64,000 bases of DNA from positions 192,001 through 256,000 of the forward strand of contig JBBFKX010000002.1 in NCBI GenBank assembly GCA_037481815.1. The letters run 5' to 3'. The first letter of the stretch is position 1; each line of letters begins with the position of its first letter. This document shows, piece after piece, positions 34,992 to 57,000 of the stretch. The DNA is from a candidate division WOR-3 bacterium (GTDB lineage Bacteria > Hydrothermota > 32-111). The translations under genes were made by a program, and so were the position numbers. The notes under the pieces were generated by a model that saw only the letters and a list, made by a program, of their open reading frames with translations, was not told the origin of the DNA and did not search any database.

Positions 34992-35770
34992 TCTTTCTCC
35001 CTTACTATGACTGTATCTTCAAAAATTTTCACTGCAATTCCAAAAGGTAAAAAATCAAGTTTTTTCATTTCACCTTTCAGGTAAACATAGATATTTTCCT
35101 TATTCTCTTTTAAAACTCTGTTGAAGTGTTCCATCAACAGTACTATTATATTATATTTTGCTCCATCTTTCTGATACCTGTTATCGGTGTTGTTGTAGAT
35201 TTCACTCCATAATTTAACTGCTGTGATATAATCACCTTCCTTCTTTTTAGAAGCGGCTGCAAATGTTTTACAAAAATATGGTGCATCCTTTTTAGTTGAA
35301 CTGAAAAGAAACCATCTGTACGCTTTTTCATAATCTTTCAGATAGATGTAATACAAAAAACCTTTAACAAAAGGACTTTCCCATCTTTCAGGTAAATTTA
35401 TCATCCCTTTATCAAGAAGTTTAAATCCAAGATCTGGTCTTTTCTGATCATAGGTTACAACGGTTCCACCAAAAGTATAACATTGTAAAAAATTCGAATC
35501 AAGATCTGTTATCACATCAAAAAGTTTATATAAAAATTGAAGATTTTTATCTGTCAACATATGTTGACCATAATATTGAACCGTCTGAAACCACATCAGA
35601 TTCGTGAAAGTTGTTTTATAATCAAGGGATATATCTTTTATAAATTTTCCCGAAGGGAAATACAAAAGTTCATTTTCAAATTTTTTCTTATTTTCAGGTA
35701 AATTTTGAAGAATGTTTGCAAAAAATGTTATGAGCAAAAAGAGAAGAAAAATTTTAAAAAATACTCTCAT
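34988..35770 (-). CDS. Pilus accessory protein (PilG of Myxococcus / Xap-like, TPR-like)
   Basis: N-terminal TM, W....QYYG, TDLD..F, LL.KG....P..W; lies next to a pilin-linked ABC module. Confidence 0.55.
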   Translation of the reverse strand: MRVFFKIFLLFLLITFFANILQNLPENKKKFENELLYFPSGKFIKDISLDYKTTFTNLMWFQTVQYYGQHMLTDKNLQFLYKLFDVITDLDSNFLQCYTFGGTVVTYDQKRPDLGFKLLDKGMINLPERWESPFVKGFLYYIYLKDYEKAYRWFLFSSTKKDAPYFCKTFAAASKKKEGDYITAVKLWSEIYNNTDNRYQKDGAKYNIIVLLMEHFNRVLKENKENIYVYLKGEMKKLDFLPFGIAVKIFEDTVIVREKE

Positions 35771-36537
35771 AGAAATTCTTTTTTTCTAAAAATTAAAGTT
35801 GAAGCATATAAGAGTAAACATGTATAGATAAAAGTATAGGTGACTGAAAATATGATAAAATTCAACGATACAGGTATATTGTTAACTGCATAAACTTTGA
35901 TATCAAGGTAGTAAAAGTTTGGAATAACAAGCATTATAAATTTGAGAAAAGTTTTTAGGATAAAAGTTGGCGCTTTCTGGATCAAATATGATAAGTTGTT
36001 TACAAAGAAACCAGCGATATAAGTAAAAAATGTGAATATAGAAGAAAGAACAGGTGTTGAGAATGTTGAATAGAATATCGCAATCGCTGAAAGAAGAATC
36101 GATTGCAGGAATATGTTGATTATTGAATAAAGAAGAGTGATGTTAAAAGTGATCTTATTTATCAAAAGAATAAATATAAAAAACACAGATGTGATAAAAG
36201 TGAAACAAAAAATTATCGAAAACAGTCCAAAGAATTTTCCTAAAACTATTTCATCCCGTGAAACAGGTTTTGTTATAAGAATAAATATCGTTTTCTTTTC
36301 GATTTCCTGAAATATCAACCTTGTTCCAGAAAAAAAGATTATGAACAATGAAAAGAGAGAGATCGTTGAAAGACCACTATCTTTAACAAGTCGATTCAAT
36401 TCACCCAGCGCTAAAGGATTTAAGGTTAACGAAAGAATTATGACAAGGAAAGATAATGAAAGGGAAAAAATTATTATTCGATGTCTTACCGATTCTTTAA
36501 AAACTATCGTTGATATAGAAAATATGTTTTTCATCAT
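35767..36537 (-). CDS. ABC transporter permease (PilI-like)
   Basis: 6 TM; EIEKKTI..L.TKPVSR..IVLGKF. Confidence 0.8.
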   Translation of the reverse strand: MMKNIFSISTIVFKESVRHRIIIFSLSLSFLVIILSLTLNPLALGELNRLVKDSGLSTISLFSLFIIFFSGTRLIFQEIEKKTIFILITKPVSRDEIVLGKFFGLFSIIFCFTFITSVFFIFILLINKITFNITLLYSIINIFLQSILLSAIAIFYSTFSTPVLSSIFTFFTYIAGFFVNNLSYLIQKAPTFILKTFLKFIMLVIPNFYYLDIKVYAVNNIPVSLNFIIFSVTYTFIYTCLLLYASTLIFRKKEFL

Positions 36538-37460
36538 CTCTCCATAAGTTTCATAAAATAATCTTCAAGAGAAAACTCTCTTGGAATAAAGGAAACTATT
36601 TTACCACCATTTTCATTTACAATCTTCACAATTTCTGAAGCAACATCTTCTTTTTCAATTGTGATAAAAACTTTTTTTTCATGAATAGAGAAAAATTTAG
36701 AGATCTCTTTAAACTTTTTAATTTTTTCAAGAATTTTTTCGTTTGAAAATATTTCAATATCGATCTCTTTGATTTCCCGCTTTATGATCTCATGAACATA
36801 ACCTGTTCCAACTATCTCTCCTTTGTTGATCACACAAACTTTGTCGGCGATCATTTCAATATCGGGGAGAATGTGCGTAGAAAATATGACTGTCTTGCCT
36901 CTTTTTTTCGCTGTCAGTATTATATCTTTAATATCTTTTCTTCCTATAGGATCAAGTCCTGACATCGGTTCATCGAGTATCAGAAGTTGTGGATCGTTTA
37001 TCAGAGCAACAGCAATTCCAAGACGCTGAACCATACCTTTTGAAAAAGTTCCAACTTTTGAATTCATGCTATTTTCAAGTCCAACAAGTGAAATCAAAGT
37101 TTTAATCCTGTCAGATAAAATCTGTTTTTTAATGTTAAACAATGTACCAATATGTTCAAGTGTCTCATACGCAGTTAAAAAAGGATAGAATGATGGATTT
37201 TCAGGCAGAAATCCAATCTTTTCTCTGACACTTTTTTCAAAAATGTTTTTTCCAAATATTGAAACTGTTCCTTCTGTTGGTTTTAAAATTCCCATGATGA
37301 TTTTTAAAGTTGTTGACTTCCCCGCACCGTTTGGACCAAGAAATCCAAAAATTTCATTATCAAGAACATCAAAACTGATACCTTTTAAAGCAAGAAAAGT
37401 TTTGAATGGGAACTGTGTTTTATAAATCTTTTTTACATTTGAAATTTCTAAAATTTTCAT
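36534..37460 (-). CDS. ABC transporter ATPase (PilH-like)
   Basis: GPNGAGKST, FSKGM, LILDEP, STH; directly downstream of the pilin. Confidence 0.88.
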   Translation of the reverse strand: MKILEISNVKKIYKTQFPFKTFLALKGISFDVLDNEIFGFLGPNGAGKSTTLKIIMGILKPTEGTVSIFGKNIFEKSVREKIGFLPENPSFYPFLTAYETLEHIGTLFNIKKQILSDRIKTLISLVGLENSMNSKVGTFSKGMVQRLGIAVALINDPQLLILDEPMSGLDPIGRKDIKDIILTAKKRGKTVIFSTHILPDIEMIADKVCVINKGEIVGTGYVHEIIKREIKEIDIEIFSNEKILEKIKKFKEISKFFSIHEKKVFITIEKEDVASEIVKIVNENGGKIVSFIPREFSLEDYFMKLMER

Positions 37461-37527: not shown

Positions 37528-37950
37528 TTACTCTGTTGTTCCAGGTGTTAAAATAAGATCAACCAAAGTATCTTTTCCAAAACCTGTTATCTTGTAATCC
37601 TGTCCTGCTGCTGCTCCACCATCAGGGTTTGGTGTTTCATAACCAACAATACCCTGTGCATTAGCTTCAGCTAACCAAACATATGCTCCCCCATCACCTA
37701 CTGCCTGTGTATATGGATTTTTGAAGTTCTGTGGGAGGTAACTTGCTGTAACATCTGTCTGTGGATAAACACCACCTGAATCTACAGAAATTGTCTCAAT
37801 TGCAACCTGGAAAGTGTGCATGTTTGCTTTGACTGAAGATATTTTTGCTTTGTCAATGATCTGAACAAAGTTTGGTATCGCTATTGCAGCAAGAATACCA
37901 ATGATGACCACGACGATCATGAGTTCGATAAGTGTAAAACCTTTTTTCAT
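37528..37950 (-). CDS. pilA: Type IVa pilin (probable major pilin)
   Basis: MKKG|FTLIELMIVVVIIGILAAIAIPNF; strong AGGAGG SD and its own terminator. Confidence 0.9.
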   Translation of the reverse strand: MKKGFTLIELMIVVVIIGILAAIAIPNFVQIIDKAKISSVKANMHTFQVAIETISVDSGGVYPQTDVTASYLPQNFKNPYTQAVGDGGAYVWLAEANAQGIVGYETPNPDGGAAAGQDYKITGFGKDTLVDLILTPGTTE

Positions 37951-38069: not shown

Positions 38070-38471
38070 TCAAAAAAGATGTGTAGCTGGTGTCAATTCA
38101 AGTAAAGTTGAATCGGTATCTTTCCCATAACCAGTAATTCTATAAAAATCAAAAGAACCTTCATATTCAACAACACCTTCAATATTAGTTTCCTCCGCAT
38201 TCTGTATCGCAGGTGAAAGATTACTGTAAGGATTTTTGAAATTCTGTGGTAAAGCATCAACAAAACCTTCAATGTTTGGGAAATATTCAAGATATGTTTT
38301 TTCTGCTGCCTTTGTCTCAACTGTCATCTGAGTTGTATGCATATTTGATACTACACTTGCTGCCTTTGCCCTGTCAACTAGTTTATAAAAATTGGGGATT
38401 GCAATCGCTGTTAATATACCTATTATTACAACAACGATCATCAGTTCAATAAGCGTAAAACCTTTTTTCAT
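38070..38471 (-). CDS. Second type IV pilin (paralog of 37528..37950)
   Basis: MKKG|FTLIELMIVVVIIGILTAIAIPNF; shares LPQNFKNPY and ITG(F/Y)GKDT with pilin 1. Confidence 0.88.
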   Translation of the reverse strand: MKKGFTLIELMIVVVIIGILTAIAIPNFYKLVDRAKAASVVSNMHTTQMTVETKAAEKTYLEYFPNIEGFVDALPQNFKNPYSNLSPAIQNAEETNIEGVVEYEGSFDFYRITGYGKDTDSTLLELTPATHLF

Positions 38472-38568: not shown

Positions 38569-38617
38569 AGTAAAAAATTTTTCTTTCTTTTTTTTCTTTT
38601 AATGTTATAATTTGTTT

Positions 38618-39733
38618 ATGAAAAAAATTTTACTCATGACATTTTCTAATATAAAATCGGATTCCAGAGTTTTAAGATACATTAAATCTTTCGATGAAAC
38701 TTACACTGTTTATCTTATCGGTAATGGAGATTTTTTGCCTGAAAACAAAAATCTTATCTATATCAACATAAATTATAAATCAAGAAGGAAAAACAAGTCG
38801 ATTTTTGAGTTTTTGTATTACAATTTCTATTTGAAATTTAAAGCATTTGTACTTATAAAACTCATCAAGCCAGATTTTATACATTCAAACGATTTTGAAA
38901 CATTTCTTCCATCATATCTTGCATTTTTGAATAAAAAAAATAAACTGATATATGATTCACATGAGATCTGGTGTGAAAGAGCAGGTGTAAAGAAGAATAT
39001 TATTATAAAAATTCTCAATTATTTTGAATATTTGCTTGAAAAATCTTTTACAAAAAAGATCAGGTATTTTATTACAGTTTCTGATTCGATCAAACTTTAT
39101 TTTGAAAAAAGATATAAAATCAAAAATCTTTATGTTATCAGAAATGTCCCAACTTTTTTTGATAACAACGAGATTGAAAAAAATATTCTTGATTCTGTTA
39201 AAGATGAGAAAAGGTTGAAATTTGTTTATATCGGTCCATTATCTTATGAACGGAATATTCCTTTTTTGATAGGTATCTTTAAAGATTTTGAAAACGATTT
39301 TCATTTAACTTTAATCGGGAAAAATTTTTTAAAATTACCAGATTACCAAAATATAAAAATTTTTGATAACATAGATGAAAATAAAGTAATTCCAACTTTA
39401 AAGTTTTTCGATATCGGTGTTCATCCTTTAAAACTTGATAACCTAAATCATAAATTTTCTTTACCGAACAAAATTTTTCAATATATGGCATCATCCCTTG
39501 CATTGTTCGTTTATGAAAATCCCGAAACTTTAAAAATTATAGAAAAATATAAAAATGGTTTCACTGCCGATTTTTCAGATCATAAAAATGTTGCTGAAAG
39601 ATTGAAACTCTTCCAGAAGACAGACATCAAAAGAATGAAGGAAAATTCATATAGAGGTTTTTTAGAAGAGTACAACTGGGATAACGAAAAAAAGGTTTAC
39701 CAGAAGATACTTAAAAAAATTACAAATCTTTAA
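38618..39733 (+). CDS. Glycosyltransferase family 4 (GT-B)
   Basis: DSRV.R, IHSND, IYDSHE, ITVS, PNKIFQYMA; ATG 38618 is 6 nt after TGTTATAAT. Confidence 0.85.
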   Translation: MKKILLMTFSNIKSDSRVLRYIKSFDETYTVYLIGNGDFLPENKNLIYININYKSRRKNKSIFEFLYYNFYLKFKAFVLIKLIKPDFIHSNDFETFLPSYLAFLNKKNKLIYDSHEIWCERAGVKKNIIIKILNYFEYLLEKSFTKKIRYFITVSDSIKLYFEKRYKIKNLYVIRNVPTFFDNNEIEKNILDSVKDEKRLKFVYIGPLSYERNIPFLIGIFKDFENDFHLTLIGKNFLKLPDYQNIKIFDNIDENKVIPTLKFFDIGVHPLKLDNLNHKFSLPNKIFQYMASSLALFVYENPETLKIIEKYKNGFTADFSDHKNVAERLKLFQKTDIKRMKENSYRGFLEEYNWDNEKKVYQKILKKITNL

Positions 39734-41072
39734 TATTGTAATATCTGATTTTTCTATAAAGAGTTGATAGATTTATTCCAAGTGCCACACTTGCCTGTTT
39801 TTTATCGTAGTTAAAATATTTTAAAGTATCCTCAATAAGTTTTTTTTCAACATCTTCGATTTTCTGTGGAACAAAAACTGCCTGATCGGTTTGAACTTTT
39901 AAACTCGAAAGTAGTGGAATATCCGATTTTTTTATTTCAAAATTATCTTTTATCACTATTATCCTTTCAACTATATTCATAAGTTCTCTTACATTACCAG
40001 GCCAGGAATATTCGGTTAAAACATTATAAACTTCCGGGTCAACCTTTTTTATAGTTTTGCCCATCTTTTTTGAATAGTAGTCAACATAGTAATCAAAAAT
40101 CTTTGGAATATCTTTCTTCCTTTCTCTTAAAGGCGGAAGATCTATCCTTACAACATTCAACCTGTAAAAAAGATCCAATCTGAATCTATTATTTTTTACT
40201 TCTTCATCTATATTTTTATTGGTTGCTGATATTATTCTGACATCAACAGGTATCGGTTCTGTTGAACCAACTGGAACAACCTCTTTTTCCTGTAAAACTC
40301 TCAGAAGTTTTGCCTGAAGAACAAAGTCCATCTCAGATATCTCGTCTAGAAAAAGTGTTCCCATATCAGCGACCTTGATTAGTCCATCCTTATTCGTGTA
40401 TGCACCTGTAAAAGCACCTTTTTTGTAACCGAAAAGTTCACTTTCTATAAGATTCGGATTCAATGCAGCACAGTTGAAAGAAACAAAGTTTTTGTCTCTT
40501 CTTTTTGAGTTGTTGTGTATCATCCTTGCGATCAACTCTTTTCCTGTTCCACTCTCTCCAGTTATCAGAACCGTTGAGTCAGTTTTTGAAATATCGTTTA
40601 AGTTCTTTAAAATAATTTTGATCTTTTCATCCTCTCCAATAAAATCTGATGGTATTTGAAAATTTTCCCTTTCTTTAAGATAGATGTAGTTTAACTTCTC
40701 ATCCCTATTCTTCAAAGCCCTATCCACAATCTCGACAAGATAATCAGAATCCTCAACCTTTTCGAGAAAATCGAAAGCACCATTTCTGAGAGCATCGAGC
40801 AAAAGTTCCTGTGTTTTTCCAAATGCGGTTATAAGGATAACATTGACGATTGGATCTATCTCCCTTAGCCGTTTTAAAAGTTCTATTCCCGACATCTCTT
40901 TCATCTTTATATCAGATATCACAAGATCGATGTTCTCGTTTTTGAATTTTTCCAAAGCATCCTCGGGGCTTGTTGTAAATGTGGTTTTGTATCCCAAATT
41001 TTTTAGTTTGTAATCAAGAACTTTACATCTGTTCAGATCATCATCAACTATAAGAATATGATACTTATTCAA
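39720..41072 (-). CDS. pilR: sigma54-dependent response regulator (PilR)
   Basis: REC, GESGTGKE, GAFTGA, WPGNVREL, Fis HTH; paired with pilS in the pil locus. Confidence 0.85.
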   Translation of the reverse strand: MNKYHILIVDDDLNRCKVLDYKLKNLGYKTTFTTSPEDALEKFKNENIDLVISDIKMKEMSGIELLKRLREIDPIVNVILITAFGKTQELLLDALRNGAFDFLEKVEDSDYLVEIVDRALKNRDEKLNYIYLKERENFQIPSDFIGEDEKIKIILKNLNDISKTDSTVLITGESGTGKELIARMIHNNSKRRDKNFVSFNCAALNPNLIESELFGYKKGAFTGAYTNKDGLIKVADMGTLFLDEISEMDFVLQAKLLRVLQEKEVVPVGSTEPIPVDVRIISATNKNIDEEVKNNRFRLDLFYRLNVVRIDLPPLRERKKDIPKIFDYYVDYYSKKMGKTIKKVDPEVYNVLTEYSWPGNVRELMNIVERIIVIKDNFEIKKSDIPLLSSLKVQTDQAVFVPQKIEDVEKKLIEDTLKYFNYDKKQASVALGINLSTLYRKIRYYNIKDL

Positions 41073-42606
41073 TGTTCCTCCTGAATTTCAAAGTAAATTC
41101 AGTATAACCTTTTTCGCTTTTAAAATCAATCTCTCCTGAATGTTCATCTTTCACGATCTTGTAAACTATCGAAAGTCCAAGTCCAGTTCCTTTCGTCTTG
41201 TTCGTTGTAAAAGGTTGAAATATTTTTGCTTTTAAATCTTGATCAATACCTTTTCCATTATCGATGAACTTTAAAACATCGTATCCATTTTCCCGCTCAT
41301 ACACAACCTTCACAACACCATTTTCAAGACCATCTATTGCATCAAAACTGTTATCAAGAAGGTTTATAAAAACCTGTTTAAGACCTGTTCTTTCAGCAAA
41401 AATCATAGCATTTTCAAAATTTTCAAATCTTACCTTTTTATATTTTTCATCACACAGAAAAAGTTCTCCTAAAAACTCCTTTAAATTTATAAGTGTTGGT
41501 TCGATTTTTCTTACTCGAGCATATTCAAGAAACTGGTTCACAAGTAAGTTCAACCTTTCGACCTCTTCGAAAAGAATGTTGAACATCGGATGAGACCTGT
41601 ATTCATCTTTTAGTTCCCCAAGAAGAATCCTGGCACTCTCTTTTATGTTCGAAACAGGATTTCTTATCTCATGTGCAAGTGATGCTGAAAGTTGTCCAAT
41701 CGTTTCAAGTTTGTCCTTTATTCTCAACCTTCTCTCATATTCGACTATATCGGTTATGTCGTTGATGAAAATCATTATAAATGTTTCACCACTCTTCTCG
41801 TTGTAAATTTTATCGACCTGCAACTGGTAAGTTTTATTTTCTCTTGTAAAATTTTTTCTCTCTCCCTTCTGAACAAGATCAAAAATCTCCTGATCAACAT
41901 TTTTAAACTCGATATTTGAAGATATGTTTTTAAAAAGTTCTCTACTTTTTTTGTTGAAATCTGTTATTAAATAATTCTTATCAAGAAGGATTATCGTGTA
42001 CGGTATATGATCTAAAAGGTCTTTCAACTTCGCCGAATATTTAAAAAGTTCAATCTTCCTTGCCTGTAACCTTTCAGAAAGAAAACCACTCACTGCAGCC
42101 ACAAGAAAGAAGGAAAGAATATAGATATACACTCTTATGATTAACTCTTCAAGATTGACCTGTGGCTGTGGTAAAGGTCGATAGGGTGATATTATAAAAC
42201 CAAAATACTCTCCAAATACAAAAAATGAATATGCAAAGGTTGATAGTATCGCAGTTAAAAAACTACCTTTCGCGAAAATAAAAAAACTTGCTGCGATGAT
42301 GTTTACAAAATATAAAATTTCAAAAAAATTGTTCGATCCGCCAGTAAAATAAACTATACCAACGATCAGAAGGTTATCATAGATTATCTGAACATAATTG
42401 TAGAAAGTATAAAATTTTTTTGTTCTGAGTAAAATCAAAATAAAAACACTGAAAAGGATAGTTAAAATCAGTATCGAAAAATGTGGAATAAGATTGAATT
42501 TCATTCCCCTTAAACGGGAAAATATCCCAAGTAGAGGAAGTGTCAATACTATGAAAAACCTTATAAGGATATACCAGAAATATTTTTTGTCTATATCTTT
42601 AAACAT
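41065..42606 (-). CDS. pilS: Membrane sensor histidine kinase (PilS)
   Basis: 6 TM with QIIYD..TGG, PAS, AHEIRNP, GTGLGL; follows pilC. Confidence 0.85.
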   Translation of the reverse strand: MFKDIDKKYFWYILIRFFIVLTLPLLGIFSRLRGMKFNLIPHFSILILTILFSVFILILLRTKKFYTFYNYVQIIYDNLLIVGIVYFTGGSNNFFEILYFVNIIAASFFIFAKGSFLTAILSTFAYSFFVFGEYFGFIISPYRPLPQPQVNLEELIIRVYIYILSFFLVAAVSGFLSERLQARKIELFKYSAKLKDLLDHIPYTIILLDKNYLITDFNKKSRELFKNISSNIEFKNVDQEIFDLVQKGERKNFTRENKTYQLQVDKIYNEKSGETFIMIFINDITDIVEYERRLRIKDKLETIGQLSASLAHEIRNPVSNIKESARILLGELKDEYRSHPMFNILFEEVERLNLLVNQFLEYARVRKIEPTLINLKEFLGELFLCDEKYKKVRFENFENAMIFAERTGLKQVFINLLDNSFDAIDGLENGVVKVVYERENGYDVLKFIDNGKGIDQDLKAKIFQPFTTNKTKGTGLGLSIVYKIVKDEHSGEIDFKSEKGYTEFTLKFRRNIE

Positions 42607-42617
42607 TCAATACTATA

Positions 42618-43820
42618 TCACCCAGCAACAAGAGTTATCATCTTGAACATCGGAAGATACATCGCTACCATCATTCCACCGACAACAGTTGCAAGAACAA
42701 CCATTATAAGTGGTTCAAGTGCTGACATAAGTGCTTCAACAGCAGCATCAACCTCTTCATCATAAAAGTCAGCAACTTTTATAAGCATCGATTCAAGACC
42801 ACCAGTTTCCTCTCCGATCCTGATCATCTGCACAACCATTGGAGGAAAAACTTTTTCTTTAGAAAGTGGAAGAGATATCGATTCACCTTCCTGTATCGCG
42901 GTTCTCGCTTTCAGTATCGCTGCCTCAACAATAACATTTCCAGCGGTTTTTGCAGTTGTTTCAAGTGCTGAGATAATGTTGACACCTGACGAAAGGAGTG
43001 TCGCAAGTGTTCGTGAAAATCTCGCAACAACCTGTTTTCTCTGCAGATCTCCAAAAACTGGTGCTCCAAGAGCAAGTTTATCAAAAAATACTCTTCCCTG
43101 AGGAGTATTCTGAAAAGATTTTAAAGCCACTATAATTATGACTATAGCAATAATTATAAACACAATATTTTTTCTTAAAAAATTAGAAAGGTTAACAAGT
43201 ATCGCTGTTGGAAGAGGTAGTGTACCACCAAAACTTGTGAACATACTTGCAAAGATCGGAATAACAAATATCAACATAACAGCAACAGCAATAACCATAA
43301 CAACACTTATTATAGCAGGATAAACCATCGCTCCCTTAATTTTTCTTGTTAACGCTTCGTTCTTTTCAAGATATGTTGCAAGACGGCTTAAAATCGTTTC
43401 AAGAGCACCACCTTCCTCACCTGCTTTCACCATGTTCACATAAAGTTCAGAAAAAGCGTTCTTATGTTTTCTCATCGCATCAGCAAGAGTGAGACCACTT
43501 TCAACATCGCTTATCATTTCCGAGAGAACTTTTTTAAAAGGTTTACTTTCTGTCTGCTCATGAAGAATTCTTAAACATTGCATCAACGGAAGTCCTGCTG
43601 CTATCATCGTTGAGAATTGTCTTGTAAAGATGGATATAACTTTTGTTGGAATTCCACCGCCTCCACCAATTTCTATCGATGTCCAATCCATACTTAAAGA
43701 AATTATCTGATATCCTTGTGCTTTTAAAATCTGCTCTGCTTTTTGCTTGTTTGGTGCTTCTATGGAATCCTCTTTAATTTTGCCATCTCTACCTTTTGCT
43801 TTGTATTTAAACTTTGCCAT
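42618..43820 (-). CDS. pilC: Type IV pilus platform protein
   Basis: FTRQFSTM..AGLP, AGEEGG.L, IGEETG.L, LEP, MYLPMF. Confidence 0.95.
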   Translation of the reverse strand: MAKFKYKAKGRDGKIKEDSIEAPNKQKAEQILKAQGYQIISLSMDWTSIEIGGGGGIPTKVISIFTRQFSTMIAAGLPLMQCLRILHEQTESKPFKKVLSEMISDVESGLTLADAMRKHKNAFSELYVNMVKAGEEGGALETILSRLATYLEKNEALTRKIKGAMVYPAIISVVMVIAVAVMLIFVIPIFASMFTSFGGTLPLPTAILVNLSNFLRKNIVFIIIAIVIIIVALKSFQNTPQGRVFFDKLALGAPVFGDLQRKQVVARFSRTLATLLSSGVNIISALETTAKTAGNVIVEAAILKARTAIQEGESISLPLSKEKVFPPMVVQMIRIGEETGGLESMLIKVADFYDEEVDAAVEALMSALEPLIMVVLATVVGGMMVAMYLPMFKMITLVAG

Positions 43821-43835
43821 CTATTCCCCCTTTTA

Positions 43836-44927
43836 TTAAATATTAACATTTCCTGTCTTTCTATATTCAGCAAGCATCTTTTCAAGTTCTTCTGGCTCCT
43901 TCGAAGCAGCCATCATGTTTTCAAGTGTTATCTGACCTGTTCTATAGAGTTCAAACAACGCCTGGTTCATCGTTTGCATTCCATATTTTTTTCCTGCCTG
44001 TATCATCGAATATATCTGATGTACTTTGTCATCTCTTATTAACGCCTTTATTGCTGGTGTTCCAGCGAGTATCTCCATAGCCATCGCTCTTCCACCCCTT
44101 ATCTTTGGAACGAGTGTTTGAGTCATTATCGCAATTATAACAAAAGCGAGTTGTGCTCTGACCTGGCCCTGCTGTGCTTCAGGGAAAACATCTATGATAC
44201 GGTTTATCGATTCTGCTGCTGAGTTTGTGTGAAGTGTCGCAAAAGTTAGGTGTCCTGTTTCCGATATAGTCAAAGCTGCCTGAATAGTTTCCAGATCTCT
44301 CATCTCACCTATCATCACAATATCAGGATCCTGTCTCAAAGCGTATTTCAAAGCACTTGCAAAAGATTTTGTATCTGAACCAACCTGTCTCTGGTTCACA
44401 ATACATTTTTTATGTTTGAACAAGAACTCTATCGGGTCCTCAACAGTTATTATATGACTTCTCCTTTCCTGATTGATCTGATCGATCATCGCAGCAAGTG
44501 TCGTTGATTTTCCTGAACCTGTTGGACCTGTAACGAGTATGAGTCCTTTTGGTCTTTTTGCGAACTCTGAAACTATTGGAGGTAAACCGAGTTCTTTGTA
44601 TCCTTTTATCTCAAAAGGAATCTGTCTTAAAACCATCGCTACATTTCCGCGTTGTCTGAAAACATTTCCTCTGAACCTTGAAAGGTTAGGAACCGAAATC
44701 GAAAGATCGAGTTCCCAATTCTGTTCAAATGTCTTTTTCTGTTGATCGTTTAAAACAGAATATGCGAGTTGTTCACAGTCCTGTGGTTTCAAAACATCAT
44801 AGTTCATCGGAACTATCTCTCCATCGATTCTGATACATGGAGGTAGTCCTGCTGTTATATGTAAATCTGATGCTTTTCTTTCGACCATCTCAGTTAAAAG
44901 TTGAACTATTGAAGGTAAAGGTGACAT
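43836..44927 (-). CDS. pilT: Retraction ATPase PilT
   Basis: ASDLHI, GPTGSGKST, LRQDPD, ETGHL, AIKALIRD (AIRNLIRE), GMQT. Confidence 0.95.
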   Translation of the reverse strand: MSPLPSIVQLLTEMVERKASDLHITAGLPPCIRIDGEIVPMNYDVLKPQDCEQLAYSVLNDQQKKTFEQNWELDLSISVPNLSRFRGNVFRQRGNVAMVLRQIPFEIKGYKELGLPPIVSEFAKRPKGLILVTGPTGSGKSTTLAAMIDQINQERRSHIITVEDPIEFLFKHKKCIVNQRQVGSDTKSFASALKYALRQDPDIVMIGEMRDLETIQAALTISETGHLTFATLHTNSAAESINRIIDVFPEAQQGQVRAQLAFVIIAIMTQTLVPKIRGGRAMAMEILAGTPAIKALIRDDKVHQIYSMIQAGKKYGMQTMNQALFELYRTGQITLENMMAASKEPEELEKMLAEYRKTGNVNI

Positions 44928-44938
44928 CTATAAACCTC

Positions 44939-46702
44939 CTATTCCATTACAGCTGTTTCTCTTATAACCTCTTCTATAGTAGTTAAACCCTTTTTTACTT
45001 TTATCAAAGCATCATCTCTTAGAGTTTTCATACCCTCTTTCTTCGCCTGCTCTCTCAGTTCGGCAGTTGATGCTCTTGCTAAAATCATCTCTCTGAGTTT
45101 TGGAGAGATCGGCATAACCTCTGTTACAGCCAACCTTCCCTTATAACCCTTTCCACCACAAAAATCACAACCATCTCCCTTTTCATAAACCTGATGACCT
45201 TTCAAAATCATAGGATCAATTCCATAATCCCTTAAGGTTTCCTCATCGTAAACAATCGGTTTTCTACACTTTTCACACACCTTTCTGAGCAACCTCTGCG
45301 CCTGTATCAGATTCAAAGCTGCTGACACAAGAAATGGCTCTATTCCCATATCTATCAATCTGTTGACTGTTGAAGGTGAATCGTTTGTGTGAATCGTTGA
45401 AACAACAAGGTGACCTGTGAGTGCTGCTCTTATCGCGATTTCCGCTGTTTCTGTATCTCTTATCTCTCCAACGAGTATCACGTTTGGTGATTGTCTCAAA
45501 AATGCTCTTAAAGCGGATGCAAAAGTGAAGCCAATATCCGGGTTGACCTGCACCTGATTTATTCCGTAAAGATTATACTCTATTGGATCCTCTGCTGTCA
45601 TTATCTGTATATCCGGGGTATTCAGAGATGATAGAGCAGAATATAGTGTTGTTGATTTTCCCGAACCTGTTGGACCTGTGACAAGAACTATTCCGTAAGG
45701 TTTATGTATGGCTGCCTGGAATTTTTCGAGGTTGTCCGGCTCAAATCCAAGTTTAGTCATCTCAAGTTGTAATGCTGATTTATCGAGTATTCTCATAACA
45801 ACCTTTTCACCAAAAAGCACAGGTATAATTGAAACTCTGAGGTCTATCTGTTTATCGTAGACCTTCAACCTTATTCTTCCATCCTGCGGGATGTTATGGA
45901 CTGCAATATCAAGTTCTGACATCAATTTTATTCTTGAAACTATTCCTGCCTTCAGTTCGTATGGGGGTCTTATAAGTTCAGTTAAAACTCCATCAACTCT
46001 CAGTCGAACTCTCAAATAATTTTCAAATGGTTCGATATGTATATCGGACGCTTTCAATTCAACAGCTTTTGTAAAAATATAGTTTACAATTTTAACAACC
46101 GGCTTGTCCTCCGCTGCGGAAGCACCATCGATAACTATCTCTTTCGAATCAGCTTCTCCAACAACCTCTACATCATCGTCTCCAAGAGTAATATCCTCAT
46201 CTATGTCAAGATTTACTTCTTCGTCAATATCAAGATCTATATCTATATCATCCTCTTCTGAGAACTCACTCACCTGAGTTTGTGCTTCCCTGTATTTACC
46301 GAGTGCTTTCTGGAGTGAATTTTCAGTTGTAACAACAGGAATGACATCGAGTCCAGTTTTGAATTTAACATCATCTATAGCGTTGAGATTTGCAGGATTC
46401 ACCATCGCAAGAAAGAGCATATTCCCGGTTTTCTTGTATGGGATCATCATATGTTTTGTTGCGAGTTCCTCTGGTATAAGATTCAATATTTGAATGGGAA
46501 TCTCTTCTTTATCAATGAGAATAAATTCGGTTTTAAAATATTTTGCAAGAAATTTTGCGATTTTCTCTTCTGTGGAAAAACCTAAACTCACAACCGACTT
46601 TATAAAAGATTCACCGGTCTCTTTCTGTCTTTCAAATACCTTTCCAACCTGTTCCCTGTTCAAAATTCCTGCTGAAGTGAAAAGATTTGCAAGTGTTTGC
46701 AT
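44939..46702 (-). CDS. pilB: Extension ATPase PilB (copy 2, degenerate MshEN)
   Basis: ASDIHIEP, PQDGR, GPTGSGKST, TGHLV, tetracysteine, GYKGR. Confidence 0.9.
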   Translation of the reverse strand: MQTLANLFTSAGILNREQVGKVFERQKETGESFIKSVVSLGFSTEEKIAKFLAKYFKTEFILIDKEEIPIQILNLIPEELATKHMMIPYKKTGNMLFLAMVNPANLNAIDDVKFKTGLDVIPVVTTENSLQKALGKYREAQTQVSEFSEEDDIDIDLDIDEEVNLDIDEDITLGDDDVEVVGEADSKEIVIDGASAAEDKPVVKIVNYIFTKAVELKASDIHIEPFENYLRVRLRVDGVLTELIRPPYELKAGIVSRIKLMSELDIAVHNIPQDGRIRLKVYDKQIDLRVSIIPVLFGEKVVMRILDKSALQLEMTKLGFEPDNLEKFQAAIHKPYGIVLVTGPTGSGKSTTLYSALSSLNTPDIQIMTAEDPIEYNLYGINQVQVNPDIGFTFASALRAFLRQSPNVILVGEIRDTETAEIAIRAALTGHLVVSTIHTNDSPSTVNRLIDMGIEPFLVSAALNLIQAQRLLRKVCEKCRKPIVYDEETLRDYGIDPMILKGHQVYEKGDGCDFCGGKGYKGRLAVTEVMPISPKLREMILARASTAELREQAKKEGMKTLRDDALIKVKKGLTTIEEVIRETAVME

Positions 46703-46703
46703 A

Positions 46704-48434
46704 TTACCTTAAAGCGGTCTCCTTTACAACCTCAAGTATATCTGTTACACCCTGTTTCAGTTTTCTTAAAGCAACCTCTCTCATCGTTACCAAACCATTT
46801 TCGATAGCAATTTTTTCAAGATCATCGGTTGTCAATTTTTTCATTATCGCTTTTCTTATTTCAGGTGTTATATCCATAACCTCAAAGATTCCAACCATTC
46901 CCTTATAACCAGTTCCACCACATTTTTCACATCCAGCACCTTTATAAAGTTTCGCTCCCCCGATCTCTTCAGGTGAAAAACCAAGACGATTCAACTCTTC
47001 ATCAGATATGTTATGTGGAATTTTACAGTTCTCACAGATCCTTCTCAACAATCTCTGTGATACTATACAGTTTACAGTTGAAGATATTAAAAACGGTTCA
47101 ACTCCCATATTTATCAATCTTGTTATAGTTCCAGCGGTTGAATTTGTGTGAACTGATGATAAAACAAGGTGTCCTGTCAAAGATGCTCTTATAGCGATTT
47201 CCGCTGTCTCTCTATCTCTTATCTCTCCAACCATTATAACATTTGGATCCTGTCTGAGATACGCTCTTAATGCTGATGCAAAAGTTAATCCAACCGACTC
47301 TGCAACCTGTAACTGGTTCACACCGTCAAGTGAGAACTCTACCGGATCCTCTGCGGTGGTTATGTTTATCTCAGGACTGTTTATCTTTGAAAGACATGTA
47401 TAAAGTGTTGTTGTTTTTCCTGAACCTGTTGGACCGGTTATCAATATTATCCCAACAGGGTTTCTTAATGATTTCATCAATTTTTTTTCAAGATCTGGAT
47501 CAAAACCAAGTTTATCGAATTCAAAATCAACCTTTTCTCTATCAAGGATTCTCATAGCAACCTTTTCGCCATACATCGTAGGGACTGTCGCAACACGGAT
47601 ATCTATCGGTTTTCCATGAACTTTTACCTTTATCCTACCATCCTGAGGTAATCTCGCTTCCTGAAGTTTCATATGAGCCATAACTTTTATTCTTGAAACG
47701 ATAGATTTTCTGAATTGCCATTTTGGAGGATTTTCTATAGGTCTTAAAACTCCATCTATTCTGTACCTAATCCTTAACGATTGATCGTATGGCTCAATAT
47801 GTATATCAGATGCACCCTCTTCTACCGCTTTAGTGATAAGGTTGTTTACTATTTTGACTATTGGTCCACTATCAACTGATGCTGCAAGATCACTCACAAC
47901 CTCATCCGCTTTTTCATTTTCATCCTTTTTTATGACTTCAACATTCTCTTCAACTATATCGTTCAGATCGATGTTATCAAGGTTGTCTATATCAACTTCA
48001 ATATCATCCTCTTTGGGATAATACCTATCGATGAATTCAAGAATCGATCTTTCAGATGATATCAAAGGGATAATCGTGTGTGCAATCGTAAACTGAATGT
48101 CCTGTATAACAAACATGTCCGCAGGATTAGCCATCGCAAGGTAAAGCGTCTTGCCCTCTCTTCTCACTGGAAAAATCGTATGCTGTCTTGCAAGTTTACC
48201 TGGAATTATTTGAAGCAAAGATTCATCAACCTGAATCTCTTCGAGGTTAACTGCCTGAACTTTATACTGTTTTGAAAGAAATTCGATAAGTTTTTTTTCA
48301 GAAGTGTATCCGAGTTCAACAAGAACTGTCCCTAATTTTTTGTTTGTCTGTTTTTGAACTTTTAATGCTTCATTGAGTTGCTGGTTATTTATGATTCCAG
48401 CACTTATTAAAAGTTCTCCTAATCTTTCAGCCAT
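46704..48434 (-). CDS. pilB: Extension ATPase PilB (copy 1, intact MshEN motif)
   Basis: RLGELLISAGII....L..AL..Q N-terminus; GPTGSGKTT, LRQDP, TGHLV, tetracysteine. Confidence 0.9.
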   Translation of the reverse strand: MAERLGELLISAGIINNQQLNEALKVQKQTNKKLGTVLVELGYTSEKKLIEFLSKQYKVQAVNLEEIQVDESLLQIIPGKLARQHTIFPVRREGKTLYLAMANPADMFVIQDIQFTIAHTIIPLISSERSILEFIDRYYPKEDDIEVDIDNLDNIDLNDIVEENVEVIKKDENEKADEVVSDLAASVDSGPIVKIVNNLITKAVEEGASDIHIEPYDQSLRIRYRIDGVLRPIENPPKWQFRKSIVSRIKVMAHMKLQEARLPQDGRIKVKVHGKPIDIRVATVPTMYGEKVAMRILDREKVDFEFDKLGFDPDLEKKLMKSLRNPVGIILITGPTGSGKTTTLYTCLSKINSPEINITTAEDPVEFSLDGVNQLQVAESVGLTFASALRAYLRQDPNVIMVGEIRDRETAEIAIRASLTGHLVLSSVHTNSTAGTITRLINMGVEPFLISSTVNCIVSQRLLRRICENCKIPHNISDEELNRLGFSPEEIGGAKLYKGAGCEKCGGTGYKGMVGIFEVMDITPEIRKAIMKKLTTDDLEKIAIENGLVTMREVALRKLKQGVTDILEVVKETALR

Positions 48435-48441
48435 ACAATTT

Positions 48442-48469
48442 ATTTTATTATTTTATTTTTTTAAGTCAA
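48442..48469 (-). promoter_or_regulatory. Probable leaderless sigma70 promoter of the pilB-pilB-pilT-pilC-pilS-pilR operon
   Basis: TTGACT-N16-TAAAAT-N7-ATG; -35 lies inside the pyrG 3' end. Confidence 0.65.
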
Positions 48470-50207
48470 GTTTTAATTTCAAAGATGCTCTTACAAAACC
48501 AAAGAAAAGAGGGGATGGAGAAAATATAGTTGATCTGAATTCGGGATGTGATTGTGTTGCAACAAAGAACCTATGATTCTTTAACTCTATAAACTCCATC
48601 AACTTTTCATCCTTTGATACGTTGTGATATCCTGAAAAAATTATTCCATTTTTTTCAAGTGTTTCAACGAACTGGTTGTTCACCTCATATCTGTGTCTAT
48701 GTCTCTCAAGAATAACCGGTTTATCTTTTTCAATATAACCAAGACGAAAACTGTTTTCCTTATCTTTTTTCAAAATTTCAATATAATATTTATCTTCATC
48801 TATTCTTCCGGTTTCTTTATACAATCTGTACACAAGTGTTCCTTCCACAAGATGTGCAGCGTATGCACCAAGTCTCATCGTTCCACCATACCTTGATTCT
48901 TTGATAACATTTTTCTGATTTTCTATGAAATGGATCACAGGGTATTTCGTATAAGGATCTATTTCAACAGAGTTTGCGTTTTCAAGTTTACAAACATTTC
49001 TTGCAAATTCAACTATAGCAAGTTGCATACCAAAACATAGACCAAGATAAGGTATGTTGTTCTCTCTTGCAAATCTTATAACTTTTATTTTACCTTCAAC
49101 TCCATCTTTTCCAAATCCACCTGGAACGATGAATCCATTATATTTTTTAAGATCCTTTTTGTCAATTTTTCCGTTCTCAACATCCTGTGCTGAAATCCAA
49201 TCGATTTTTACACCACAATCGTTTTTCGCACCGGAATGCTCCAGTGCCTGGGCAACAGAAATGTATGAATCTTTTAAAGAAAATTCTCCTATATCGATGT
49301 ATTTCCCTACCATTGCAATATTGATAATATCTTTTGGATTCTCGATGATGTTAACCGTTTTTTCGAGAAAACTCCAATCAGGTCTTTTTCTTGCTTTTAA
49401 TGAAAACTCTTTCAAAATCTTTTTTCCAAGTTCATCTTTTTCAAAATTTAAAGGAACCCTGTAAAGTGTATCAATATCTGGAGCAGAAATTACATGTTCA
49501 GAATCTATGTTCGCATATATTTCAATTTTTTTCTTTCTCACACTATCAAGAGGTTCCTTTGCTCTGCAAAGGATGAAATTTGGAAAAATTCCATGTTCGG
49601 AGAGGAGTTTTATCGCCTGTTGTGTTGGTTTCGTTTTCATCTCTCCAATGTGTTTCGGTGTTGGAAGATAGGTTATAAGAACATATTTTACATTCTCTTC
49701 TCCTATCTCCCGTTCAAGTGATTTTACAGCAAAAAGATAGGGGATATTTTCATAATCCCCTATCGTTCCGCCAATTTCTATCAAAACAAATTCATATCCA
49801 TTTCCTATCTCTTTGATCCTTCTTTTTATCTCATCCGAAATGTGCGGTATGAGTTGAACCGTCTGTCCTAAAAATTTTCCCTTCCTTTCATCTTCGATAA
49901 CTTTTGAGTAGACCTGTCCTGTTGTGATATTATTTTTTTTACTGAAATGCTGGTTTAAAAATCTTTCGTAATTTCCAAGATCCTGATCTATCTCACCACC
50001 ATCATCTGTCACCCATACCTCACCATGCTCGGTAGGTCTTAAAGTTCCAGCATCAAAATTTATATACGGATCAATCTTTATAGTCGTAACTTTATAACCA
50101 TAATTTTTAAGTATCATTCCTATAGATGCTGTAGCAATACCTTTTCCTACACCACTTAACACTCCTCCGGTCACAACTATAAATTTAGGAAATTTATTTT
50201 TTTTCAT
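48453..50207 (-). CDS. pyrG: CTP synthase
   Basis: GGVLSGVGKG, KTKPTQ, VPGGFG, GLCFGMQ, ERHRHRYE, HPE. Confidence 0.97.
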   Translation of the reverse strand: MKKNKFPKFIVVTGGVLSGVGKGIATASIGMILKNYGYKVTTIKIDPYINFDAGTLRPTEHGEVWVTDDGGEIDQDLGNYERFLNQHFSKKNNITTGQVYSKVIEDERKGKFLGQTVQLIPHISDEIKRRIKEIGNGYEFVLIEIGGTIGDYENIPYLFAVKSLEREIGEENVKYVLITYLPTPKHIGEMKTKPTQQAIKLLSEHGIFPNFILCRAKEPLDSVRKKKIEIYANIDSEHVISAPDIDTLYRVPLNFEKDELGKKILKEFSLKARKRPDWSFLEKTVNIIENPKDIINIAMVGKYIDIGEFSLKDSYISVAQALEHSGAKNDCGVKIDWISAQDVENGKIDKKDLKKYNGFIVPGGFGKDGVEGKIKVIRFARENNIPYLGLCFGMQLAIVEFARNVCKLENANSVEIDPYTKYPVIHFIENQKNVIKESRYGGTMRLGAYAAHLVEGTLVYRLYKETGRIDEDKYYIEILKKDKENSFRLGYIEKDKPVILERHRHRYEVNNQFVETLEKNGIIFSGYHNVSKDEKLMEFIELKNHRFFVATQSHPEFRSTIFSPSPLFFGFVRASLKLKLDLKK

Positions 50208-54003: not shown

Positions 54004-57000
54004 TCATTTCAACAACAGGATTTTTTCCTTTATTTTTTTATTTTTATTTTTTAACTCTCCAACAAGAAAATAAGTTCCTTTCGATACATAAGAGTTTGAA
54101 TGGTTTTTTAAGTTCCATTTGAATATATAACCACCTCTTTCAATCTTACTATCAAAAATCGTTTTTACAAATGAACCTTTATTATCAACTATATAAAGTT
54201 TGAGTTCATCAAATACTGGAACGTTGACTTTGATTTTCACATCCTTTCCAAAGTTAAAACCATTAACAAGGTCCATTTTAAAAACTGTATCATTTCTTCC
54301 AAGGTTGTATGCTTGCTCAAATCCCTGATAACCGCAAACAAAATATCCACCTGTTTGATACGCTGATGATAAAGGATCATACACAAAAGCTCTCCAAAAG
54401 TAGGTTTTTCCAATTTCAAGTTCATTCTGTTCGTTAAGGGTTATCGAAGCGATTTCACCGGAAGCATAAGCAGGTTTACTCCATAAAGATGAATCAACTC
54501 TCATATCGAAATCTCTTACTATGTTTGAAAATAAAGAATCAGTAGATATTTCAATATGATATTTCAAAACTGTATCAGGATCAGCATCAGAAGCGGTCAT
54601 CGACAACGTCGGCCTATTAGAAACAATCTCTCCATTTACAGGTGAAAGAAGTATAAGATCTGTTGGTTTCGAATTTAAAACTATACCATCTGACTCTAAA
54701 ACATCAGAAAATATACCTGCGTTGTTTTCCGCAAAAAGATGTATGTGATAATTCACATATCTTACGACTCCACTTATTGATGCTCCATTAGCAAAAGTGT
54801 TAAGAGTGCAAACTTTTACCGTTTGGTGATCTGATGTTTTTAAGGAAACATAAAGTCCCTTTATACCACTCTCATCATCTTTTGGTATACCGTTCCACGA
54901 AAAATTCAGATTGTTTTTATAAGGTATCATTGTACCCTCATCAACAACAGGTCCTGAAATTCCATACGGCTTTGTTGAATCAACTGTAGCAAAAAGTGTT
55001 GCTTTCGAAACAATTCCATAGTTATCTTTAACCTCTATGAAAAGATTGTGATCCCTTCTATCAGCAAGAAGAGTACACTGGTATGTTGGTTGATATGGTC
55101 TGAAAATTCCTTTATCTATTATATTTTCAGAAAATCTAACAGAATCAGGAACTATAGATTTTGAAACATTCAAATATAGTGTTGGATATCTTGTAGAAAC
55201 ATACCTTGAGGTTGAATTGTTGAAAAGTGGATTAAAATTGATTCCATCTTTGTCATAATCGATATATTTTGTTATCGTTGAAGACCAGTTACCCATCTCA
55301 TCTTTAAATCTGACCGATATACCTTTGGTTCCCTCAAGTGTATCGGCAAATGGGAAAACAAGACCTGTAGTTACTGGAACGATCACTCCATTCACCTCTG
55401 CACTTATACTTTTTGAAAGGTCATCATAAGCATATAGATCCACTGTACAGTATGGGAGAGTTGTAAACAGAGCACCGTGGTTTACTGAAAGTGAACAGTT
55501 GTATGGTGGTTGATTGTCAAAAATAATGTTATCGTATATTTTCCCAAAACCTAATCCGTTTTTAAAAAACTGTCCATATACTGTTTTACTTCCCTGGTTT
55601 GTAGTCAAAGACCAGTTTATGTTCTCATAGTTTGAAAAGTAAGTGTTTCTTAAAGAAAAGTTTTCATAGTTTGATATCCATAAAGAATCTGGAGCTGAAT
55701 ATATTTTAAACGCAAGGTCTGTTACAACACCACCATAAGGATACCAGTTGCCCGCTGTTGGTGAATAATAGGTTTGTCCATCAGGATATGGGTTCATATA
55801 ACTTACCATACAAACACCATTAAAAGTTGAACCAAAAAGATCAGTGTAAAGAACAATATGATAAAGCGAATCTGGATCAACATTAACTGGAGGATTTAAA
55901 CTTATATATTTCCAGGAAGAATCGGATACAGGTGGCAGGAAACCATAACCTAACATTCTGTTCGGGATATGATAAGAACCCGATAGTGTATCAGAATAGA
56001 TTGCAGCATAAATACCAGGTGAATTTACATTCTTTGTAACTATTCCGATCGCTGAAATTTTATCAGTATGAGGTATAAAAGATTGTGCTAAAGGCATTCC
56101 TCCATACTCATACTCATAAGTTGTATTACTTGATGTTATGATCTTTGGAAAAGCTTTTACCGTAACATTTGTGTTGTTAGTATATTCAGAATCATCGTTT
56201 ATAGTTAAACTTCCTCTTTCAACAAAATTTATAGTTTTTTCAACTCTATCGCCTTCTATTTTTTCACTGTTGAAAAATTTTACATAGACAGTATAAACTC
56301 CAGGTTCAGATGGTATATCAATACTTATCCTGTCTGTGGTATAAGGAAGATCGTATTTTGTATAATCGAGGTATCCATTAACACCTGTCTCAACATATCT
56401 AACAGGGAAAAAAGAATCTGTTGCAACAAGATTCATCGAAACTTTTGGAGAAAATACTATCGTATCAGGATTAACTATGTTTCCATTTGGTCCATTTACA
56501 ACCATTATAAGAGAATCCTTAACAGGTGTTGATTGGTTTCCAGCAAGATCCTTAAAAGAATACCAGTAGTATGTCCAACCATTTGTTGCTGGCTTATCGA
56601 GAGGTAGATCGATCACTATAAAACTATCAATTCCAACATTTTTAATGTTGAATTCACTCCATGGCAAAAGGTTTGTTCTGATCAAAACTGAATAAAATCC
56701 TGAATAGTTGTCAGTTGCTTTGAATTTTACCTTTGGAGTTTTTAACCAACTAACGATATATTTTCCGTTACTATAATAGTAGTTATCAACATAGGTCCTT
56801 GTTCCAGTTGGAGGGATGGTATCATAACTGTTCAGAAAAAATTCTTTTGCTAGATGTTGATTTGAACCAACATGAATGTAAGTATAGAAGGGTTGAAAAG
56901 CAGGGTGTGTGACTTTAACAAGATATTTGAATGTGGTATCTGAAAGAGGCATTACTCTTTTGAATTTGAAATATCCAATGCTATCAGTGATCACATTATA

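Follow-up and report, generated by a model that had tools for sequence, protein, structure and literature searches.

Gene Content of the Locus

The window, i.e., the whole 64,000-nucleotide (nt) stretch analyzed here (positions 192,001 to 256,000 of contig JBBFKX010000002.1, assembly GCA_037481815.1, from a candidate division WOR-3 bacterium), carries a type IV pilus operon with two pilB genes at its head, each coding for a PilB-family extension ATPase; the upstream gene and its product are called UP, and the downstream ones DN. The initial annotation of the window, made from the letters alone, had reported two full-length pilB genes 1 bp apart (UP as copy 1 and DN as copy 2), and this reading holds: the open reading frames (ORFs) code for 576 and 587 amino acids (aa), and base 46703 is all that lies between the UP stop codon and the DN start codon (Table 1). 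The operon continues behind the pair in the order pilB-pilB-pilT-pilC-pilS-pilR-pilin.

UP and DN are 44% identical over 591 columns, along the whole length (BLASTP), and Pfam finds the same domains in both, namely, T2SSE (453.5 and 450.3 bits, respectively) and PF05157, the MshEN/T2SSE_N domain. The long acidic linkers that had been noticed in both copies are confirmed by counting, with 19 Asp or Glu among 51 residues in UP (residues 140-190) and 25 among 61 in DN (residues 140-200).

Table 1. Features of the pilus locus, with positions in the window (position 1 is its first nucleotide)
Feature	Position	Strand	Remarks
pyrG	48453-50207	-	directly before pilB-UP in gene order
pilB-UP, extension ATPase	46704..48434	-	576-aa ORF; intact MshEN motif by hidden Markov model (HMM)
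UP residues 4-56, tandem 24-residue MshEN half-sites (RLG... / KLG...) with 5-residue spacer	48267..48425	-	NF053729 76.9 bits
UP codon M513 (GYKGM)	46896..46898	-	aligned with EpsE R441, eight residues past the fourth Cys
UP/DN junction, single base	46703..46703	-	...AGG TAA t ATG...; between UP stop (TAA) and DN start (ATG)
pilB-DN, extension ATPase	44939..46702	-	587-aa ORF; degenerate cyclic di-GMP (c-di-GMP) motif
DN residues 3-55, degenerate MshEN region (TLA... / SFI...)	46538..46696	-	NF053729 25.1 bits
DN codon S405 (RQSP for RQDP)	45488..45490	-	
pilT, retraction ATPase	43836..44927	-	363 aa; Pfam T2SSE 165.7 bits; 11 nt after DN
pilC, platform protein	42618..43820	-	400 aa; two Pfam T2SSF domains
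pilS-like sensor kinase	41065..42606	-	513 aa; name from translation and position
pilR-like sigma-54 response regulator	39720..41072	-	450 aa; name from translation and position
ORF between the pilR-like gene and the pilins	38612-39733	+	373 aa; opposite strand
Type IV pilin 1	38070..38471	-	133 aa; N terminus MKKGFTLIELM...; N_methyl 37.7 bits
Type IV pilin 2	37528..37950	-	140 aa; N_methyl 39.9 bits; first 20 residues as in pilin 1

Family Assignment and Integrity of the Two Copies

As for the family of the two proteins, both pass the PilB equivalog model TIGR02538, with 681.2 bits for UP and 679.2 bits for DN, barely above the cut-off of 675.65; the model of GspE, the type II secretion system (T2SS) ATPase, gives 579.0 and 579.3 bits, under its cut-off of 630.25 (TIGR02533), and the TfpB model NF053534 gives 446.7 and 445.5 bits, under its cut-off of 850. 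A grouping of one copy with T2SS GspE was among the outcomes that the initial annotation had set against its own proposal, and neither copy groups there. The solved structures nearest to UP are those of Geobacter PilB (6olj and 5tsg, E about 1e-168), and the context is that of a type IVa PilB, with pilT and pilC directly behind the pair.

The motifs of these ATPases, whose roles are taken from studies of PilB (PMC5424180) and of the contacts made by EpsE (PMC5061722), are complete in both copies. Walker A, the Asp box, the atypical Walker B (Gly-Glu, with the catalytic Glu), and the His box occur in UP and in DN and are invariant within each of the two clades of orthologs described below, as are the arginines of the N2 domain (PQDGR and RVS); the tetracysteine zinc motif, with its two CxxC pairs, is found in all 41 UP and DN sequences compared, and the Arg that makes an inter-chain contact in EpsE (R394 there), located three positions ahead of the first Cys, is retained as R464 in UP and R473 in DN; it and the four cysteines are likewise invariant within each clade.

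Against a genome of the same genus, the ratio of nonsynonymous to synonymous substitution rates (dN/dS) is 0.038 for UP and 0.023 for DN, and about 0.06 over the first 57 residues of DN; these values are rough, with a within-genus dS of about 1-1.8 that is near saturation, and they are all within-genus values, dS being undefined against the relatives G008 and G012. Stop codons or frameshifts were not seen in any match to the pair among the 41 genomes searched (see the next section). UP and DN are intact PilB-family ATPases under purifying selection. Decay of one copy, the other outcome that would have counted against the initial proposal, is not found in either, since dN/dS is low even in the first 57 residues of DN, and both proteins are expected to hydrolyze ATP.

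Conservation and Age of the Pair

The initial annotation had asked how far the pair is kept in relatives, and it is kept widely. The search covered 41 genomes, i.e., the window genome and 40 relatives, sorted into families labeled f1 to f16, with the window genome in f1. A DN-type and a UP-type gene adjoin on one contig in 29 of the 41; in one further genome (G013) the pair is split over two contig ends, and no pair was seen in the remaining 11. The pair occurs in nine families (f1, f2, f4, f6, f7, f11, f12, f14, and f15) and, among these 41 genomes, was not found in the other seven (f3, f5, f8, f9, f10, f13, and f16). In an even draw of the phylum, at least 54 of 151 genomes have a DN-type gene; the threshold used, E <= 1e-178, split DN from all other paralogs in the 41-genome search, and the count is a lower bound, some true DN orthologs lying at the threshold itself. 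In each of the 20 pairs whose junction was read, the two genes almost touch, at a distance of -4 to +13 nt when the first start codon of each ORF is assumed; from this spacing, the synthesis of UP and DN would be translationally coupled.

The tree built from 63 PilB-like proteins found in these genomes (quick IQ-TREE run, LG+G4, with support only from the Shimodaira-Hasegawa-like approximate likelihood ratio test, SH-aLRT) has a UP clade of 20 sequences (SH-aLRT 100) and a DN clade of 21 (SH-aLRT 99), both spanning the same nine families and both repeating the family structure inside; a third clade, of orphan PilBs, holds five sequences (SH-aLRT 100). Judged from the sequences, the UP/DN pair is old and conserved. 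With PilBs of other phyla added, the branching order among UP, DN, the orphans, and the canonical PilBs (those from Myxococcota, Acidobacteriota, Geobacter, and others) is not resolved, and a tree constrained to hold UP and DN together is not rejected (p-AU of 0.618 in the approximately unbiased test); a single duplication, at the base of much of the phylum, would fit these trees, which stop short of proving it.

Outside the phylum, 79 PilB loci from named genomes of other lineages were sampled, and pilB genes were counted within the available flanks. A single pilB was found in 72 of the 79, in agreement with the earlier statement that canonical loci carry one. The order pilB-pilB-pilT occurs in two loci: one (L049) falls inside the clades of the host phylum, beside G033, and the other belongs to Candidatus Fermentibacter daniensis; there the upstream copy groups within the UP clade (support 95), and the downstream copy is a long branch that is not resolved. 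The other five loci have the order pilB-pilT-pilB, three of them in Planctomycetota (L118, L123, and L126), where the two copies belong to separate clades, and two elsewhere (L121 and L127, UBP18 being among these two).

The c-di-GMP Motif

The MshEN motif was defined in the c-di-GMP receptor domain of Vibrio cholerae MshE (Wang et al. 2016, PMC5013675). The N terminus of UP reads RLGELLISAGIINNQQLNEALKVQ-KQTNK-KLGTVLVELGYTSEKKLIEFLSKQ and that of DN reads TLANLFTSAGILNREQVGKVFERQ-KETGE-SFIKSVVSLGFSTEEKIAKFLAKY. Both were scored with NF053729, the 53-position c-di-GMP motif model of NCBI, which has a cut-off of 38 bits; UP passes and DN fails (76.9 versus 25.1 bits), so that the earlier description of a first copy with the motif and a second one without it is borne out for the window genome. 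The literal relaxed pattern of Wang et al., a regular expression, is too strict to serve as the test: the UP of the window fits it in one of its two half-sites, and a tandem match occurs in three of 20 UP and five of 21 DN sequences. It agrees with the HMM on one point, i.e., no half-site is matched in any of the six DN sequences of family f1, and at least one is matched in every other DN. The second half-site of the UP of the window departs from the motif in having K for R, and a T stands at one of the hydrophobic positions.

The DN of the window, numbered as in MshE, carries the substitutions R9T, G11A, R38S, G40I, and Q61Y. Variants of MshE at G11 and G40 show little or no c-di-GMP binding, and changes of this kind account for the loss of binding in Xanthomonas XpsE (PMC5013675). 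On this ground, UP probably binds c-di-GMP, and the DN of the window probably does not.

Across the families, the picture is different. All 20 UP sequences pass NF053729 (50.3-78.0 bits), as do the five orphan PilBs (74.3-81.5 bits) and the 15 DN sequences from families other than f1 (43.7-79.0 bits); the six DN sequences of f1 all fail (23.5-34.3 bits). By this distribution, the loss of the motif from DN is a late event in family f1, long after the duplication. Family f2 presents the reverse of f1: the second half-site of its UP (L018, L021, and L028) has drifted, with MLA... for RLG... and Val or Leu for the final Gln, the domain yet scoring 50-63 bits, and its DN retains both half-sites. 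Because both copies pass the motif model outside f1, the asymmetry in c-di-GMP binding is not why the pair exists; the opposition of a c-di-GMP-gated and a constitutive motor, with which the pair had been explained, may hold as a description of family f1 and falls as the reason for the pair.

The window genome appears to use c-di-GMP, and a third protein encoded in it has a stretch that passes the MshEN model (54.5 bits), a 534-aa DUF4388-plus-TPR protein (L128:2684-4288, on G000:C3) in which this stretch is apparently inserted in DUF4388. The neighbors of its gene are a second pilT and genes for a Ras/Arf-like GTPase, an AAA-type ATPase, CheR, and CheB, and pilM and the secretin gene lie near.

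The GYKGM and RQSP Residues

The initial annotation had also described a reciprocal difference in the ATPase motifs, with GYKGM for GYKGR in copy 1 and RQSP for RQDP in copy 2. Both residues are there, as M513 of UP and S405 of DN; what does not hold is their reciprocity, RQSP being a feature of the whole DN clade and GYKGM of only eight of the 20 UP sequences. As they arose at different depths, they are no matched pair.

M513 takes the place of EpsE R441, the Arg of GYxGR, which contacts adenine and ribose (PMC5061722); the register is given by the last Cys of EpsE, C433, with R441 eight residues on. The eight UP sequences with Met are all of families f1 and f2, which belong to the same class, and Arg stands in the other 12, in all 21 DN sequences, and in the five orphans. 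On the alignment, GYKGM has become fixed in one lineage, at a position that contacts the nucleotide; it leaves the catalytic residues untouched and could alter nucleotide affinity. The Asp of RQDP is absent from all 21 DN sequences (Ser in 17, Gly in three, and Ala in one) and is retained in 20 of 20 UP sequences and five of five orphans, as well as in 17 of 17 further PilB-like proteins from the genome set; by these counts, RQ[not D]P is a signature of the whole DN clade. No role for this Asp was found in the literature examined.

Gene Complement of the Pilus Machine

A search of the whole window genome, which is 95% complete, returned four PilB/GspE-like ATPases and two PilT-like ones, but a single gene of the T2SSF family (the pilC of the operon), one secretin, and one PilM, the last two encoded elsewhere in the genome, outside the pilB operon. 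A single pilC just downstream of the pair was also found in five of five relatives tested, from four families. With one PilC, one PilM, and one secretin available, UP and DN appear to share one pilus machine.

The genome has seven pilin-like genes, two of them in tandem behind the pilB operon. One motor per pilin had been proposed; this finds no support here, nor does one motor per machine, given the single PilC, PilM, and secretin, and given that paired neighboring pilins were seen only at f1 loci. Pilins were sought with a self-made pattern in 14 further stretches, 5-12 kb downstream of the pair, and they may lie elsewhere in a genome: G001 and G012 gave two each, and the short stretch of G004 gave one, all three belonging to family f1, and none were found in the other 11 stretches (eight of families f4, f7, f11, f12, and f14, two of f1, and one of 1.5 kb from f6). 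Since such pilins were seen at f1 loci only, neighboring pilins seem not to track the PilB pair.

As for the remaining PilB/GspE-like ATPases of the window genome, one is a 561-aa orphan PilB (L003:1483-3168, on G000:C1 at about 755149-756813) that passes TIGR02538 with 681.8 bits and has the best c-di-GMP motif of the genome (81.5 bits). Its gene lies away from pilus genes, flanked by a 185-aa ORF on one side and by a large helicase-like one on the other, and its orthologs, which form the clade of their own mentioned above, come from family f1 and one f12 genome. The other is a 663-aa GspE-like ATPase fused to a C-terminal receiver (L004:1093-3084, on G000:C1), with no MshEN motif; Asn replaces the arginine of PQDGR and GFSGI replaces GYKGR in this protein, so that its ATPase may be impaired. 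Relatives of the fusion in other families (L047 and L048) have the receiver at the N terminus.

How the Two Motors Might Share One Pilus

UP and DN would thus be two active type IVa extension ATPases, derived from an old duplication and co-translated at the head of the motor operon. We consider it moderately probable that they serve one pilus machine as two separate rings between which the work is divided: both would dock on PilC, each as a homohexamer, and the two rings would alternate there and split the work. One motor might initiate assembly and the other sustain it, as has been proposed for PilB and TfpB of Acinetobacter baylyi (see below), and, in family f1, c-di-GMP would act on UP alone, with DN running free of the signal. 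Several points weigh against this division of work or its details. A 1:1 hetero-oligomer would account at least equally well for the tight coupling of the genes seen in every pair. With the genome at 95% completeness, a second platform gene could be unassembled; moreover, the third PilB-type ATPase and the GspE-receiver fusion mean that the users of PilC are not settled. Regarding UP itself, its second half-site is off the published relaxed motif at one position, and "intact" refers here to the HMM score; moreover, the UP of the f1/f2 class is without the Arg that contacts adenine and ribose (Met513), and its handling of nucleotides may be altered.

A mixed ring, in which UP and DN co-assemble into one hetero-hexamer and, in f1, the UP subunits alone sense c-di-GMP, is a possible arrangement that we hold to be doubtful. 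It would agree with the stop/start coupling seen in all 20 pairs, which suggests equimolar synthesis, and with the fact that UP and DN are never found apart where contigs allow; the single PilC docking site, the inter-chain Arg kept in both proteins, and the substitutions fixed by clade in the C-terminal domain (eight discriminating columns plus RQSP) point the same way, and a J Bacteriol review of 2024 (PMC11656802) mentions hetero-oligomers of PilB and TfpB as a possibility. However, the literature examined describes no mixed ring of PilBs in any system, and PilT and PilU, which are neighboring paralogs too, are described as distinct motors. The two changed residues give such a ring no help either: GYKGM and RQSP arose at different times, and the arginine fingers and Walker A of Geobacter PilB are placed at the interface between packing units (PMC5424180), which we read as same-chain contacts, so that the two residues would be no trans-complementing pair. 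Complex prediction is uninformative on this matter, since paralogs of a solved homo-hexamer are expected to pass whatever the truth. That the mixed hexamer is moreover obligate, and hence the first heteromeric extension motor of a type IV pilus, we regard as unlikely; if true, a sensing UP and a sensor-less DN would alternate or pair within a ring, the signal would tune part of the rotary cycle, and the ring would be old and phylum-wide, with its sensors trimmed stepwise.

The remaining explanations have less to recommend them. PilB of Myxococcus xanthus takes part in signaling for exopolysaccharide (EPS) regulation (PMC5544727), and one copy might likewise be mainly a signaling or regulatory ATPase, e.g., UP, which might sense c-di-GMP and so control DN or some other output; the MshEN motif retained in 20 of 20 UP orthologs and the Met in place of the nucleotide-contact Arg in the UP of f1 and f2 would suit such a role. 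This is nevertheless improbable, given that all catalytic motifs are invariant in both clades, that the Arg is intact in 12 of the 20 UP orthologs, that both copies score equally as PilB equivalogs, and that both carry the sensor outside f1. It is more improbable still, to a high degree, that one copy comes from another system, whether a T2SS GspE or an MshE of the mannose-sensitive hemagglutinin (MSHA) type, and stands next to pilB by chance: the family is easily mis-assigned and the genome has four PilB/GspE-like ATPases, but both proteins failed the GspE model and passed the PilB one, the genome has one T2SSF gene, one secretin, and one PilM, and each of the 20 pairs read is part of the same operon. 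Hardly any credence is left for a recent, redundant duplication with one copy decaying. The lost c-di-GMP motif of DN and the one unusual motif residue in each copy might be taken for its signs; 44% identity, two orthologous clades over nine families, and dN/dS of 0.02-0.04 (about 0.06 in the degenerate N-terminal 57 residues of DN), with no stops or frameshifts, contradict it.

Further Genes of the Window

The 373-aa ORF of the plus strand, which separates the pilR-like gene from the pilins, lies in the lowest-GC part of the region (0.263). The tandem pilins are followed by genes for an ABC ATPase (36534-37460) and a membrane protein (35767-36537), an arrangement that we take to be reminiscent of pilGHI behind pilA in Myxococcus. 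Farther away, at 54004-58728 (- strand), the window codes for a secreted-looking protein of 1574 aa, whose C-terminal end is like a type IX sorting tail.

Significance and Comparison with Known Systems

The layout with two pilB genes is no curiosity: it has long been kept across many families, as a coupled pair and with a single PilC where this was tested. For annotation, the consequence is that a listing of "pilB, pilB" in such genomes should not be put down to faulty assembly or to a pair of pseudogenes. The families also form a natural series, with the c-di-GMP site in both motors (most families), in one (f1), or with one good half-site in UP (f2); with this series, one could study the effect of c-di-GMP on an extension motor and the question of whether PilB paralogs assemble into mixed rings.

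Among known systems, the closest solved structures, matched over the full length with E of 1e-162 to 1e-168, are PilB of Geobacter metallireducens and G. sulfurreducens (5TSG, 5TSH, 6OLJ, and 5ZFR) and of Myxococcus xanthus (3JC8). UP and DN share with them the order of domains, i.e., MshEN N1, linker, N2, and a C-terminal domain with the Zn motif, and their operon shares the order pilB-pilT-pilC-pilS-pilR-pilA; the differences are the presence of two pilB genes versus one, the Met of UP for the Arg of GYKGR, and the Ser of DN for the Asp of RQDP. Like Vibrio cholerae MshE, UP has two 24-residue half-sites with a 5-residue spacer (76.9 bits), whereas DN, which fails the model (25.1 bits) and is substituted at R9, G11, R38, G40, and Q61, is unlike MshE and resembles Xanthomonas XpsE. 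PilT and PilU of Pseudomonas and Vibrio offer another parallel, being neighboring paralogous hexameric motors of the same superfamily on one machine; they are retraction motors, however, and UP and DN are extension motors. PilU is the second retraction motor and depends on PilT. The coupling of the two is mentioned in the 2024 review (PMC11656802).

As for two extension motors, no paper on adjacent bacterial PilB pairs was found in a literature whose coverage left out most subscription journals; the nearest systems in it are PilB/TfpB of A. baylyi, PilB1/PilB2 of Clostridium perfringens, PilB1/PilB2 of cyanobacteria, and the sets of PilB-PilC paralogs of archaea. Pilus extension is usually attributed to one PilB, and the only studied exception found in this literature is that of A. 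baylyi. Normal piliation with its one type IVa pilus requires both PilB and TfpB, which are not interchangeable (Ellison et al. 2021, PMC8213720); one is proposed to initiate assembly and the other to keep it going (PMC8213720; PMC11656802), and the sharing of one machine by the two was still a question in the 2024 review (PMC11656802). The window resembles this case in having two PilB-family extension ATPases that would serve one machine in non-redundant, divided roles, and perhaps in the regulation of one motor of the two, by CpiA in A. baylyi and presumably by c-di-GMP here. It differs from it in that the UP and DN genes adjoin and would be translationally coupled, both proteins exceed the cut-off of the PilB equivalog model and neither is a TfpB, and the host belongs to an uncultured phylum and not to Gammaproteobacteria. 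In conclusion, a pilus with two extension motors was already known from A. baylyi, and what the present locus adds to it is a conserved pair of adjacent PilBs and the stepwise loss of their c-di-GMP sites.

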